Shown here piece after piece: positions 45,750 through 47,597 of a DNA stretch of 64,000 nucleotides (within the stretch, counting starts at the first letter, position 1; each line of letters begins with the position of its first letter). The notes beneath the pieces are model-generated. The model saw nothing but the letters and a program-made list of their open reading frames with translations, was not told the DNA's origin and made no database searches. The stretch is taken from NCBI GenBank assembly GCA_014686985.1, contig GCA_014686985.1_3627.1; one strand, written 5' to 3'. The position numbers and the translations under genes are program-made. This DNA comes from a phage.

Positions 45750-46463
45750 TTAAATATACTCTGCTACATCCTTGAAGCTCGAAGGCTTCATGATCTTACC
45801 TTTACTGTCAAGGAATATGATAACTTTATTACCGTTGTAGAATTCTTCCTTAGCAACAAAACCTTCATATCGACCATCAAAGCGTCGCTCAAGATCTTTA
45901 ATCTCCAACTCTATGAGTTGTTCAGCAGGCATATCTGCACTGGCACCGTGTGAATACCGTAGATGGTTGACCCGTGCAAACTTGCTGTCATTCGATTTGA
46001 GAACCTTACGCATCATCCCGCACACATCGCCGCGAAGCTGGAACAGCAAAGCTGTTGACAACTCCGCTAAACGGTAAGCTGACGCTCTTTGCTTGGATGT
46101 GTTTTTCGCAGCGATCAGTGTGTCATAGAACTCACCGATCTTGAACTTAAGACCTCGTGGATTATCAAACAGGTTTGACCACTTTTCGTGATTGTCATTA
46201 ACAAGATAAGCTGCATAACTTGTGACAACGTGAAGATCGCAGGCCTCCTTTAGCAGGTGATCTCCACCATCACCTTTCTCCAGCTCTTCCAAAACTTCAT
46301 TGAACTCTTCCTCAATGAAGCTAAGCTGTAATTCGAATGGTGTGTATGATTTTTTCACTTTAGCTGCCACACGGTTCCAGTTTTCCACCCAGTTGGCAGA
46401 CCAAAGGTAGTTTTCAGGTTGGGATAGTTTTTCCAGGTTGTCAATTAATTTAGTATTCAGCAT
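45750..46463 (-). CDS. MazG-like nucleoside triphosphate pyrophosphohydrolase
   Basis: FIEEEFNEVLEELEKGD...LKEACDL resembles the MazG EExxE...E...D metal-binding helix pair. Confidence 0.5.
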   Translation of the reverse strand: MLNTKLIDNLEKLSQPENYLWSANWVENWNRVAAKVKKSYTPFELQLSFIEEEFNEVLEELEKGDGGDHLLKEACDLHVVTSYAAYLVNDNHEKWSNLFDNPRGLKFKIGEFYDTLIAAKNTSKQRASAYRLAELSTALLFQLRGDVCGMMRKVLKSNDSKFARVNHLRYSHGASADMPAEQLIELEIKDLERRFDGRYEGFVAKEEFYNGNKVIIFLDSKGKIMKPSSFKDVAEYI

Positions 46464-46476
46464 TAAAGGTCTCCTT

Positions 46477-47238
46477 TTAAAGTTCCATAAAGTTTTCTAC
46501 AGTCTCAATGAATGTTTTATCAGAGAAGGCATCAACCGCACCGTTAAACCAAACTGGGATGCCACGATCCTCATACTGGTAAATATCACTACGTGAAATG
46601 CCATTCTCCTCTAGATGCTGTGAGTCGTATTTATTAACGATCAGTAGTTTGGTTCCCTTATTGCAGGCAGGGAATAGCTCCCAGTTAAAATTGATAACTG
46701 TGTTGGAGCACCCTACAAGGATAACCATATCATTGCTCGTAAGAGAAGTCAACAGGTCATACATGTCTGTATACTTCGGAGCTACTTCTCCGAAGAACAC
46801 CACATTAGGCTTAACCCAGGTATACTTTCCTGCGTCTACCTCAGAGTATCCAATGTCCTTAATGACGTCACTTCCTTCATCGTCCTCATAGACTATTTCT
46901 GGCAAATACCCGTGGACATGTAAAATATCTTCATGTTTTACACCAGCACGCTCCAGCAAATCATCTACATTGGTGGTAAGGTTGATCACACGACCAGACC
47001 AGCGGGAATACCACTCAGCGATCCGAAGATGTGCAAGGTTAGGCTCAACACTGCCTAAAGCTACACGACGTGCATTGTAAAAGTCATGCACCTTATAGTA
47101 GTTCTTGGCAAAGGTGTGGATGTTGCACACCTCATCGATGCTGAAATTCTCCCACATTGCAGTGCTACCAGATCGGAAAGTGGGAATACCAGATTCAGCG
47201 CTCAAACCAGCACCGGAGATAATAATCAGTCGTCGCAT
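46477..47238 (-). CDS. Sir2-family NAD-dependent deacylase/ADP-ribosyltransferase-like protein
   Basis: GAGLSAESGIPTFR (Sir2 GAGIS..SGIPxFR), TTNVDDL, HG. Confidence 0.7.
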   Translation of the reverse strand: MRRLIIISGAGLSAESGIPTFRSGSTAMWENFSIDEVCNIHTFAKNYYKVHDFYNARRVALGSVEPNLAHLRIAEWYSRWSGRVINLTTNVDDLLERAGVKHEDILHVHGYLPEIVYEDDEGSDVIKDIGYSEVDAGKYTWVKPNVVFFGEVAPKYTDMYDLLTSLTSNDMVILVGCSNTVINFNWELFPACNKGTKLLIVNKYDSQHLEENGISRSDIYQYEDRGIPVWFNGAVDAFSDKTFIETVENFMEL

Positions 47239-47246
47239 AAGTGTCC

Positions 47247-47597
47247 TCAGTAGATGTTTTGTTTAATCTCTATTCCAAACTTTTTAAACGAGTCAGCTGC
47301 AAGCATGAATTTACGAGCCGCTGATGGGTTAGAAGTATGCACGAAAATCTTCACGTTGTCAACTACAGGAGGCTTACCAAATACAAATTTTTCCTCCAAC
47401 ATAGATAGGCAATCGTACCCTTCGAATACCTCTCCAAGGTCGTTGTCCATATGCCACTCAGAAACGCGTCTGTAGAGCTTTCTATTATCGTTAATAAAAT
47501 CTATAAACTCGGAGGAATTCTTTAGCCAAACAGCGTCTTGGAGCCCGTACTTTGACGGATCTCTCAAGTCATCTAGCCACACAATCAACTTCTTCAT
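47247..47597 (-). CDS. hypothetical protein (116 aa), weak receiver-domain-like pattern
   Basis: acidic pair LDDLRD, later MDNDLG, VHTSNP and a distal Lys in CheY-like order; speculative. Confidence 0.45.
   Translation of the reverse strand: MKKLIVWLDDLRDPSKYGLQDAVWLKNSSEFIDFINDNRKLYRRVSEWHMDNDLGEVFEGYDCLSMLEEKFVFGKPPVVDNVKIFVHTSNPSAARKFMLAADSFKKFGIEIKQNIY

Follow-up and report, generated by a model that had tools for sequence, protein, structure and literature searches.

The sirtuin, the MazG-like pyrophosphohydrolase and the divergent receiver-type (cREC) protein that are encoded side by side in this phage are best read as the distal part of a module that heals and seals broken RNA ends, probably countering host defences that cleave RNA, such as the anticodon nucleases; we put the probability of this reading at roughly 55%. 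The DNA analysed (the window, 64,000 nucleotides) comes from an rV5-like Vequintavirus and is 98.8% identical to phage slur16. The RNA-end repair context is given by the genes that flank the trio, which encode a T4 Rnl1-type RNA ligase, an AAA_33 kinase and a calcineurin-like phosphoesterase, so that the cluster comprises six genes: RNA ligase, kinase, phosphoesterase, predicted receiver-like phosphoesterase, sirtuin and MazG-like pyrophosphatase (Table 1).

This neighbourhood is already known. Iyer, Burroughs, Anantharaman and Aravind (2022, Viruses 14:1977, PMC9503650) described it in their section 3.7.3, naming Escherichia phage V5, and predicted from it an RNA-repair system that uses NAD, with the sirtuin working in the manner of Tpt1/KptA. 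Configuration 2 of their sirtuin-centred RNA repair takes Escherichia phage V5 and Proteus phage Mydo as its prototypes and matches the cluster studied here gene for gene: each combines a sirtuin and a cREC with a T4-like tRNA ligase, a nucleotide kinase, a calcineurin-like phosphoesterase and a MazG-superfamily pyrophosphatase, and nothing essential differs between them. Since the window derives from an rV5-like phage, the two are the same entity, and our work is a re-discovery of a published neighbourhood in the same type of phage. To that description we add the operon boundaries and the hairpin that closes the operon, the loss of the zinc-binding cysteines from a sirtuin that keeps the SIRT5-type Y/R pair, a dimeric-dUTPase-like model of the "MazG" protein, and the weaker linkage of the MazG-like gene to the sirtuin in related phages. 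Our search of the literature found no experimental test of the predicted NAD-dependent RNA-repair system.

Table 1. Features of the RNA ligase-sirtuin region, in window coordinates
Feature	Coordinates	Strand	Basis
Downstream neighbours past the hairpin: 112-aa protein, 89-aa protein, ATP-dependent DNA ligase (427 aa)	43839..45716	-	Pfam, phrog
Hairpin, terminator-like end of the four-gene unit	45726..45743	-	GC-rich, 7 nt past the MazG-like stop codon
All-alpha NTP pyrophosphohydrolase ("MazG-like"), 237 aa, C-terminal beta-hairpin extension, last operon gene	45750..46463	-	
Sirtuin, 253 aa, CobB/SIRT5-like class III lineage without Zn-Cys4 module	46477..47238	-	Pfam SIR2, PDB, Foldseek
cREC protein, 116 aa, divergent receiver-type domain	47247..47597	-	Pfam PF20274, phrog_1479
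T4 Rnl1-type RNA ligase, 311 aa, first operon gene	47594..48529	-	Pfam RNA_lig_T4_1
Divergent intergenic region, RNA ligase (-) / kinase (+)	48530..48629	.	ORF map
P-loop kinase, 136 aa, candidate polynucleotide 5'-kinase	48630..49040	+	Pfam AAA_33
Calcineurin-like metallophosphoesterase, 184 aa, candidate 2',3'-cyclic phosphodiesterase or 3'-phosphatase	49048..49602	+	

The three open reading frames from which we started (237, 253 and 116 aa) are real, at exactly the positions given in the preliminary description and all on the minus strand. The span assigned to them there, 45750-47597, does hold these genes and is too narrow as a boundary, leaving out the Rnl1-type ligase at 47594-48529. This ligase shares 4 nt with the start of the cREC gene and is part of the same unit, a four-gene operon that runs from the ligase through cREC and the sirtuin to the MazG-like gene, with spacers of 8 and 13 nt after the initial overlap and a hairpin at its end. 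The genes for the kinase and the calcineurin-like phosphoesterase point the other way, diverging from the operon, and the intergenic region between the two units is, judging from its letters, a likely promoter region for both: sigma-70-like matches lie on the plus strand at 48573-48601 and 48612-48640, and the sign of the GC skew flips between the 46-48 kb and 48-50 kb bins. At the other end, the terminator-like site reads GGCCGGGATTACCCGGCT then TTACTTGTTG, and the 41-nt fold of the hairpin has an energy of -17.6 kcal/mol (z = -3.8 against shuffles). Since terminator-like sites are not in excess over chance in the region (6 found against 6.2 expected), we only infer that the hairpin terminates the four-gene unit.

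The three neighbours past the hairpin match phrog_114, phrog_7684 and phrog_14585; the first protein would be 102 aa long if begun at the ATG at 45686, as in the slur16 annotation, and the DNA ligase carries the Pfam domains DNA_ligase_A_M and DNA_ligase_OB_2. These genes are conserved and linked to the cluster in relatives, and their membership in it is uncertain. Seven tRNA genes are found 4 kb from the cluster, consistent with a phage that is invested in tRNA supply. The cluster itself is no chance assembly, as 121 phage records contain its 3.6-kb block with an identity of at least 90% and each of its proteins has many homologues.

The RNA ligase matches RNA_lig_T4_1 (PF09511) over profile positions 1-227 of 227 (9.2e-15, 55.5 bits, cutoff 28.3) and phrog_562, 'RNA ligase and tail fiber protein attachment catalyst' (4e-66), and has nucleotidyltransferase-like motifs (KKNG at 96, EGYM at 223 and KIKS at 239). 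The kinase matches AAA_33 (2.7e-10, 41 bits, cutoff 27), with GLPGSGKST at residue 10 as its Walker A motif and an Asp within END at 33-35; annotated as 'ATPase' in slur16, it occurs together with Rnl1 and Sir2 at 11 related loci and would act on a polynucleotide, a putative substrate on which a PDB sequence search was uninformative. The metallophosphoesterase, which is co-located with Rnl1 in related loci, scores over the cutoff for both Metallophos_2 (1.7e-6) and Metallophos (4.1e-6), matches PDB 1xm7 (aq_1665) at 7e-11 in a PDB search that was likewise uninformative on the substrate, and contains the motifs SDTH at 7, GD at 58, GNHD at 88 and GHAH at 141. A HAD phosphatase of the Pnkp type is absent from the cluster's RNA-end enzymes.

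In phage T4, Pnkp and Rnl1 heal and seal tRNA that has been cut by the PrrC anticodon nuclease. The present cluster resembles that system in that a lytic E. coli phage again encodes an Rnl1-family ligase along with a P-loop protein resembling a 5'-kinase and a phosphoesterase for 3' ends, but differs from it in several respects: (i) the kinase and the phosphatase are separate proteins, the latter calcineurin-like and not HAD; (ii) the ligase is shorter (311 aa) and falls below the cutoff of the RnlA equivalog (TIGR02308; 38 bits against 242); and (iii) cREC, the sirtuin and the NTP pyrophosphatase are added. Kinase, metallophosphoesterase and Rnl1 would by themselves suffice for a full pathway of the T4 kind, which leaves no obvious need for the sirtuin.

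The 116-aa protein matches Pfam PF20274, cREC_REC (4.5e-15, 56.5 bits, cutoff 27), and phrog_1479 (5e-35), and PF20274 is carried by 54 of its 55 homologues. Its earlier description as receiver-like is therefore right for a divergent receiver-type domain and wrong for a CheY-like one: a 19-sequence profile aligned to E. coli CheY by hhalign gave a probability of 0.2%, the sole receiver match in a PDB search was Spo0A, at an E value of 0.47, and Pfam found no two-component-type kinase among the neighbouring genes. With neither a detectable CheY profile similarity nor a two-component partner, a CheY-type signalling receiver was rejected. Invariant in the 19 sequences are R12, P14, D51, D53, the stretch H87-T88-S89-N90-P91 and K96, with D9 and D10 nearly so (at least 90%); the conserved acidic positions correspond to those of the receiver active site. 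In 7 other loci the protein adjoins Rnl1, and in locus L037 it shares a cluster with it; the definition of cRec and its operonic link to RNA ligases come from PMC7824862. It is a predicted metal-independent phosphoesterase for 2',3'-cyclic or ADP-ribose 1'',2''-cyclic phosphate (PMC7824862, PMC9503650), and according to the same two papers is often fused to Nudix.

For the 253-aa protein, the assignment to the Sir2 family is borne out by Pfam SIR2 (PF02146; 3e-27, 96.2 bits, cutoff 24, profile positions 1-178 of 180) and phrog_2162 (9e-110), and all the motifs first quoted for it are present (GAGLSAESGIPTFR at residues 9-22, TTNVDD at 88 and HVHG at 107). Its top PDB sequence matches are SIRT5 and CobB (2e-21), and the top Foldseek matches of its AF2 model (pLDDT 86.7) are the CobB structures 6rxq and 1s5p (E 1e-17, TM 0.74-0.84). 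Among 19 diverse homologues the invariant residues are G9-A10-G11, S16, G17, F21, R22, F53, Y54, R57, R58, N90, D92, H109 and G110. The NAD-binding and catalytic set (GAG loop, FR, N90, D92 and H109, which aligns with SIRT5 H158) is thus intact, and these conserved residues point to NAD+ consumption. Y54 and R57 align with SIRT5 Y102 and R105, the class III Y-x-x-R pair, and FYxxRR is kept in all 114 homologues.

The zinc module of sirtuins helps to shape the peptide cleft in the deacylases. In the phage sirtuin the zinc-binding Cys4 is absent, with no Cys in the approximately 38 residues between the HG and KPN motifs, where the 114 homologues have none (66), one (46) or two (2) and never more; the model still has a small beta-sheet where the module would sit. 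Together with this loss, the phage protein differs from CobB and SIRT5, with which it has in common the Rossmann NAD site, the catalytic His and the Y-x-x-R pair, in falling below the cutoff of every CobB equivalog (NCBIfam NF040867, NF001753 and others; best 122.7 bits against 243), in being phage-specific and in its RNA-repair context. Sequence and model together say that it resembles these deacylases and not the defence NADases. Membership among the latter (ThsA, DSR1/2, Sir2-HerA, pAgo-Sir2) was rejected, the PADLOC defence-Sir2 profiles giving nothing beyond a spurious 13.6-bit match and the neighbours being Rnl1, cREC, NTP pyrophosphatase, kinase and phosphoesterase, with no SLOG, HerA or pAgo partner.

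The 237-aa protein contains the MazG-like motif reported for it (EEEFNEVLEELEKGD at residues 51-65). On its own it stays under the cutoff for Pfam PRA-PH (E=0.083, 13.7 bits against 21.3) and matches phrog_671, 'nucleotide pyrophosphohydrolase', at 5e-22; within its family, 35 of 40 members match PRA-PH (best 3.9e-7) and 16 of 40 match MazG, and the family profile matches HisE 1yvw at 4e-4. Residues E53, E56 and D76, which would belong to an EExxE...D metal-binding motif, are invariant and E52 nearly so, and the C-terminal beta-hairpin has invariant K223 and K226. Placement in the all-alpha NTP pyrophosphohydrolase superfamily is supported by these sequence comparisons, and it is at this level (phrog_671, PRA-PH, HisE) that the label "MazG-like" stands. 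The best matches of its medium-confidence model (pLDDT 73) among solved structures are the dimeric dUTPases of an S. aureus phage (Dut, 5myd), C. jejuni (1w2y) and L. major (2yay), at only 7-14% sequence identity; the phage protein differs from these in its additional beta-hairpin, and none of the 40 family members matches Pfam dUTPase_2 (PF08761) at E values up to 0.1. Going by the model, the gene may instead encode a dUTPase-like housekeeping enzyme.

Related phages keep these genes together in other arrangements. Ten other large myovirus loci have the order MPE-Rnl1-(cREC)-kinase-Sir2-DNA ligase-...-MazG-like, unlike that of this phage, and an eleventh, on a partial contig (L026), has the kinase-to-MazG-like stretch of the same order. 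In 28 T5-like loci the gene after an orthologous sirtuin (57-58% identical) encodes a HAD_SAK_2 'Swiss Army Knife RNA repair' phosphatase. A DNA ligase gene lies just downstream of Sir2 (adjacent or within about 1.5 kb) in L023-L029, L037, L038, L045, L047, L052, L063 and L069, and the MazG-like gene of relatives follows the DNA ligase rather than the sirtuin. All these linked loci represent only two or three related phage lineages, so the synteny may partly reflect shared ancestry. Counting against a role in RNA repair, the RNA ligase is missing near Sir2 in L067-L069 (L069 has Sir2-DNA ligase-MazG with no RNA ligase within 7 kb, and L067 and L068 have no recognisable RNA-repair gene nearby) and cREC goes unmatched in some loci, with no phmmer match in the Rnl1-containing L038, L045 and L047 and no gene with a cREC Pfam match on record in L063. 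For the MazG-like protein in particular, the dUTPase-like model and the family member in L059, which sits between dNMP kinase and ThyX genes, count against a part in repair.

In the pathway that we propose, a metal-independent host RNase would leave 2',3'-cyclic phosphate and 5'-OH ends; the kinase would phosphorylate the 5'-OH, cREC and/or the metallophosphoesterase would open or remove the cyclic phosphate, and Rnl1 would seal the break. The sirtuin would then use NAD+ to strip the residual 2'-phosphate, as Tpt1/KptA does, yielding nicotinamide and ADP-ribose 1'',2''-cyclic phosphate, which would be dismantled by cREC and possibly also by the pyrophosphohydrolase. The domain calls, the packing of the operon, the linkage despite rearranged gene order, the HAD_SAK_2 association and the catalytic conservation all argue for this proposal. 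Its weakest links are the sirtuin step and the part given to the pyrophosphohydrolase: that the sirtuin is an RNA 2'-phosphotransferase we infer from gene context only, and we know of no sirtuin that acts on RNA.

In the tRNA splicing of fungi and plants, Trl1 is followed in the clean-up by Tpt1 (KptA in bacteria) and then by a 2H cyclic phosphodiesterase or a Macro protein. The proposed logic of the phage system would be alike (PMC9503650), with the 2'-phosphate of ligated RNA passed to NAD+ to give ADP-ribose 1'',2''-cyclic phosphate, whose ring would be opened before its breakdown, but no enzyme is homologous: the sirtuin would stand where Tpt1 (ART-type fold) does, cREC in the place of 2H, and the all-alpha NTP pyrophosphatase in that of Macro/Nudix. 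No 2'-phosphotransferase is annotated in the slur16 genome. A sharper form of the idea holds that the sirtuin is nucleic-acid-directed, its Tyr54/Arg57 anion pocket binding an RNA 2'-phosphate and not succinyl-lysine and the phosphate being transferred to NAD+, and that the operon is a full non-homologous replacement of Tpt1/2H/Macro-Nudix (sirtuin for Tpt1, cREC for 2H, dUTPase-fold pyrophosphatase for Nudix). Its core has been published as a prediction, while the roles of the Y/R pocket and of the dUTPase fold are our extension; we offer it tentatively, as a doubtful possibility.

The least unlikely of the competing explanations is one of mixed functions, in which RNA repair is the work of Rnl1, cREC, the kinase and the phosphoesterase only, the sirtuin, of CobB/SIRT5 type, removes acyl groups from lysines of host or phage proteins (as a desuccinylase, for example) and so resets their acylation, and the "MazG-like" protein is a dUTPase-type dNTP sanitiser feeding dUMP to ThyX. 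The nearest neighbours of the sirtuin are bona fide deacylases (SIRT5/CobB, 2e-21; Foldseek 1e-17), and the Y-x-x-R pair that it keeps defines acidic-acyl recognition in class III sirtuins; yet the zinc-binding cysteines are missing across its clade, the CobB equivalog models all score it far under their cutoffs, and it lies beside RNA-end enzymes in two different arrangements, in this phage within four genes packed no more than 13 nt apart and closed by a hairpin. For the sanitiser speak the rV5-like genome, where two ribonucleotide reductases and ThyX are annotated without a dUTPase and phmmer found no homologue of E. coli Dut, the distant family member between dNMP kinase and ThyX, and the position of the MazG-like gene behind the DNA ligase in relatives; the lack of any dUTPase_2 match in the family and a model of only medium confidence tell against it.

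That cREC and the pyrophosphohydrolase, with or without the sirtuin, carry out no RNA repair and destroy NAD-derived immune messengers, or toxic ADP-ribose phosphates made by host TIR, Sir2 or ART defences, appears improbable to us. Such a role would suit the predicted opening of ADP-ribose cyclic phosphates by the often Nudix-fused cREC, which here shares its operon with another pyrophosphatase fold, and the genes found within a few kb of the sirtuin in relatives (NADAR, a Nampt-like NAPRTase with a PRPP synthetase-like gene, a PnuC-like transporter, or an Acb2/Tad1-hairpin protein). However, these NAD-related neighbours are absent from the window, where phmmer with the related-phage proteins found no Nampt-like, PnuC or NADAR homologue, the RNA ligase, kinase and phosphoesterase would be left unexplained, and to our knowledge none of these families has a gcADPR-type activity. 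The idea with which the preliminary description had closed, that the phage replenishes or rewires NAD+ and alarmone pools to defeat Thoeris, DSR or CBASS, is very improbable. The chemistry of sirtuins breaks NAD+ down rather than producing it, and NAD-synthesis genes, NARP enzymes included, are not named in the slur16 annotation, so a pool-restoring role is not supported. The all-alpha superfamily does include E. coli MazG, which is linked to ppGpp, but the phage protein resembles dUTPases and HisE, nothing ties it to (p)ppGpp, and the flanking repair genes would again be unaccounted for. Phage NAD-reconstitution pathways that counter Sir2-type defences do exist (NARP1-3, using Adps/Namat, Nampt/Nmnat or PnuC/NadR; PMC13464706) and would share with our cluster a counter-defence centred on NAD+, but they synthesise the NAD+ that the phage sirtuin, from its residues, would consume. 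Equally hard to credit is a sirtuin acting as a phage-borne NADase or ADP-ribosyltransferase, be it as a toxin, in superinfection exclusion or in host shut-off: other phage sirtuins do occur in toxin-antitoxin-like or HerA-linked systems (PMC9503650), but this one has no HerA, Macro, SLOG or TIR partner nearby (Pfam) and no PADLOC defence-Sir2 match, and its structural neighbours by Foldseek are deacylases, not ThsA or DSR.

A counter-defence role for the cluster is plausible. If the published prediction holds, the phage protein would provide the first demonstrated case of a sirtuin working on RNA, and its pathway a second, independently evolved, NAD-dependent route to the removal of RNA 2'-phosphates; common E. 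coli phages of the rV5-like and T5-like groups would undo RNA-cleaving host defences in this way, with relevance both to host range in phage therapy and to the biochemistry of sirtuins.

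The window derives from an rV5-like myovirus with a genome of about 137 kb, since Escherichia phage slur16 (Vequintavirus) was the best match (98.8%) to a 3.6-kb query around the finding, which 121 phage records matched at 90% identity or more. A preliminary description had presented three adjacent ORFs as Sir2-like, MazG-like and CheY-like proteins that could manipulate NAD and alarmone pools; all three lie on the minus strand exactly where it placed them, and the peptides it quoted were found. The boundaries it drew were, however, too narrow. The gene for a T4 Rnl1-type RNA ligase, carrying the motifs KKNG, EGYM and KIKS, lies directly upstream of the gene for the receiver-like protein (cREC) on the same strand and overlaps its start by 4 nt, and a P-loop kinase and a calcineurin-like phosphoesterase are encoded divergently. 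Only 8 nt separate cREC from the sirtuin gene and 13 nt the latter from the MazG-like gene, whose stop is followed 7 nt on by a GC-rich hairpin with a T-rich tail. A divergent intergenic region of 100 nt, coinciding with a change of sign in GC skew, lies upstream of the Rnl1 gene. These surroundings (the ligase, the short spacers, the hairpin, the kinase and the phosphoesterase) place the three genes at the distal end of a unit of four, itself part of a six-gene cluster of RNA-end enzymes. PDB sequence searches with the kinase and the ligase gave no significant match.

Features of the RNA-end-enzyme cluster and of other parts of the window
Feature	Coordinates	Strand	Annotation or evidence
ATP-dependent DNA ligase	43839-45122	-	
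89-aa ORF	45122-45391	-	phrog_14585
GC-rich hairpin with T-rich tail	45726-45743		-17.6 kcal/mol, z -3.8
MazG-like ORF, 237 aa	45750-46463	-	slur16 RefSeq: 'nucleotide pyrophosphohydrolase'
Sirtuin ORF, 253 aa	46477-47238	-	slur16 RefSeq: 'Sir2 (NAD-dependent deacetylase)'
cREC ORF, 116 aa	47247-47597	-	slur16 RefSeq: 'hypothetical protein'
T4 Rnl1-type RNA ligase	47594-48529	-	Pfam RNA_lig_T4_1 9e-15; PHROG 562 4e-66
P-loop kinase	48630-49040	+	AAA_33 2.7e-10
Calcineurin-like phosphoesterase	49048-49602	+	Metallophos_2 and Metallophos, both above threshold
Seven tRNA genes	52538-53350	+	Arg-tct, Tyr-gta, Ser-tga, Thr-tgt, Met-cat, Pro-tgg and one odd tRNA-like gene
Odd tRNA-like gene, 99 nt	53007-53105	+	ARAGORN: 4-base anticodon (atcc); 'tRNA-???' in slur16
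Large terminase	~54454-56330	+	two CDSs in slur16 (92093-93109 and 93531-93959)

Several other features of this phage deserve mention. The 89-aa ORF and the start of the gene for the DNA ligase overlap by 1 nt. In Mydo-like loci, relatives of this ORF come directly after the DNA ligase gene; it may encode a small ligase-associated protein. The odd tRNA-like gene may represent a pseudo-tRNA, a tRNA containing an intron or one resembling frameshift suppressors. As annotated in slur16, the large terminase is divided between two CDSs and an HNH endonuclease gene interrupts the large subunit of the anaerobic ribonucleotide reductase (slur16 118782-121702), splits that suggest insertions of introns or homing endonucleases. 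Among the database matches to the 3.6-kb block were 18 'Campylobacter phage' records with Campylobacter jejuni in the host field (90-98%), phage C2 (MG065655.1) reaching 98.4% to this E. coli rV5-like block; the host given in these records seems questionable, or else propagation may have started from mixed samples.

The assignment to the Sir2 family held (Pfam SIR2, 3e-27). In sequence the protein comes closest, among solved relatives, to SIRT5 and E. coli CobB (2e-21), and the top Foldseek match of its AF2 model (pLDDT 86.7) was CobB, followed by SIRT5 and Sir2Af (E 1e-17, TM 0.74-0.84); it scores under every CobB equivalog cutoff. None of the PADLOC defence Sir2 models matched; on this result and the structural neighbours, a defence-type Sir2 NADase was rejected. 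The chemistry of NAD+ cleavage is probably intact, because the GAG loop, F21-R22, N90, D92 and H109 (aligned with H158 of SIRT5) are among the invariant residues. Y54 and R57 align with Y102 and R105 of SIRT5, which together recognise acidic acyl groups, and all 114 homologues carry FYxxRR. The four zinc-binding cysteines are missing: the segment from HG to KPN spans about 38 residues with 0-2 cysteines across the same homologues, and in the model a small beta-sheet is still present there. This protein, in which the substrate-binding lobe is altered, is a phage-specific offshoot of the class III sirtuins.

As for the 116-aa protein, it matches the Pfam 'Cyclic-phosphate processing Receiver domain' (cREC_REC, PF20274) well above threshold (4.5e-15), but the label 'CheY-like', in the sense of a signalling receiver, is not supported. 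Comparison of its profile with E. coli CheY by hhalign revealed no similarity (probability 0.2%), so that the receiver relationship is taken from published work and from the name of the Pfam family; a PDB sequence search gave no significant match. Nearly all of its 55 homologues are 106-121 aa long and 54 match PF20274, with R12, P14, D51, D53, H87-T88-S89-N90-P91 and K96 invariant and D9 and D10 nearly so. By its published definition, cRec derives from receiver domains and is predicted to be a phosphoesterase for cyclic phosphates; it accompanies RNA ligases and NAD/ADP-ribose enzymes, but never histidine kinases (Iyer et al. 2021, PMC7824862; PMC9503650).

Taken to mean the all-alpha NTP pyrophosphohydrolase superfamily, the term 'MazG-like' is valid. 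Alone, the 237-aa protein is below threshold for PRA-PH (E 0.083) and has no significant match in a PDB sequence search; its superfamily is indicated by PHROG 671 'nucleotide pyrophosphohydrolase' (5e-22) and by its relatives. An exhaustive profile search gathered about 167 cluster representatives, mostly 200-260 aa; in 40 diverse members PRA-PH was matched by 35, MazG by 16 and Pfam dUTPase_2 by none, and a search with the family profile hit HisE (1yvw) at 4e-4. The AF2 model, of medium confidence (pLDDT 73), is helical with a C-terminal beta-hairpin, and a BFVD fold search returned mostly unnamed phage proteins. N30, E53, E56, D76, N158, K161, K223 and K226 are invariant across 40 sequences, a pattern that fits a metal-dependent nucleotide pyrophosphatase with additional phosphate-binding lysines. 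In UniProt the same protein is named 'Sir2-like protein' (A0A7H0XDZ2), and the matched block of several public records, such as MN850593 (inoa) and MN850646 (nom), carries two features labelled 'putative Sir2-like protein'; the name seems to have been transferred in error from the adjacent gene.

Relatives of the sirtuin are encoded at 54 viral-contig loci. In 12 of them, from rV5-like and other phage contigs of 93-150 kb, Rnl1, kinase, phosphoesterase, DNA ligase and MazG-like genes lie within 8 kb of the sirtuin gene (one, L026, is a truncated contig without the Rnl1 end), and eight of the 12 also encode cREC. The commonest order there is MPE (metallophosphoesterase)-Rnl1-cREC-kinase-Sir2-DNA ligase-...-MazG-like, from which the window differs. 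In 28 T5-like loci, including T5 itself, the sirtuin gene is followed by one for a HAD_SAK_2 'Swiss Army Knife RNA repair' phosphatase, and 10 others have only a metallophosphoesterase, 4-7 kb away. Two jumbo-phage Sir2 proteins (L054, L055), with far stronger canonical SIR2 scores and without matched neighbours, were left out of the evidence.

Other genes accompany these loci. Two tandem DUF7415 (PF24187) paralogues directly follow the pair in the 28 T5-like loci (9651-10481 in T5, L004) and may be part of the sirtuin/HAD_SAK_2 module. The related Escherichia phage ECO340P2 (OP172792; L067) encodes, about 4 kb upstream of its sirtuin orthologue and in the same orientation, a 91-aa protein (2940-3215) matching Pfam Acb2_Tad1_hairpin, a family of anti-CBASS/anti-Thoeris proteins. 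Several of these phages carry, next to the block, a gene for NADAR, PnuC or a Nampt-like NAPRTase. In related 135-150 kb phages Nampt-like NAPRTase and NADAR genes flank a Sir2-DNA ligase-MazG block; in L069 the NAPRTase gene also has a PRPP synthetase-like neighbour, and L063 encodes a PnuC-like NMN transporter nearby (L069, 1738-4498 and 13647-14198; L023, L025, L028, L029, L052 and L053; L063, 73-858). None of these NAPRTase, NADAR, PnuC or PRPP synthetase-like genes is present in the window, and the pattern suggests that this phage group has an NAD-centred island of larger and variable extent.

We consider it somewhat better than an even bet (about 0.55) that the cluster is an RNA-end repair and counter-defence module to which the sirtuin belongs. 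That Rnl1, kinase, phosphoesterase and cREC are RNA-end enzymes is well supported by their predicted domains and context. For the sirtuin we infer a Tpt1-like role; a conserved Y/R anion pocket combined with loss of the peptide-binding zinc lobe would be compatible with a phosphate-bearing, non-peptide substrate. The main rival, in which the sirtuin is a deacylase and the cluster a mosaic of functions that have nothing to do with one another, is less likely. The association of sirtuin and RNA-end enzymes recurs in two gene arrangements, as the rV5-like and T5-like contexts show, but these stand for only a few phage lineages and it is not universal; one phage (L069) has the order Sir2-DNA ligase-x-canonical MazG and no RNA ligase within 7 kb. 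The link of the MazG-like gene to the DNA ligase is no looser than its link to the sirtuin.

For the MazG-like gene itself, a dUTPase-like housekeeping role is a serious rival, because the rV5-like genome encodes ThyX and both aerobic and anaerobic ribonucleotide reductases, a distant family member lies between dNMP kinase and ThyX, and neither an annotated dUTPase nor a homologue of E. coli Dut, the canonical trimeric enzyme, was found in this genome. The NTP-PPase may either be a member of the pathway, for example degrading ADP-ribose derivatives in the manner of the Nudix enzyme of the jumbo-phage version, or be a dUTPase-like enzyme sharing only the transcript. Counter-defence, as originally proposed, is plausible and the families stand, but the mechanism offered was wrong: the context is one of RNA-end enzymes, and no link of the MazG-like protein to alarmones was found.

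Exactly this neighbourhood has been described by Iyer, Burroughs, Anantharaman and Aravind (2022, section 3.7.3; PMC9503650), with the T5-type sirtuin-HAD pairing as a third configuration. They proposed that the sirtuin, analogous to KptA/Tpt1, removes the 2'-phosphates remaining after opening of the cyclic phosphate, while cREC and other phosphoesterases act either on the cyclic end, opening it, or on the ADP-ribose cyclic phosphate (ADPr>p) that results. NARP3, a recently described phage NAD+ reconstitution pathway, was rejected as an explanation, as it consists of PnuC and NadR and is unrelated. Our literature searches found no experimental work on the rV5 or T5 sirtuins and no follow-up of the prediction. 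The cluster had been published before, as a computational prediction made for this same type of phage.
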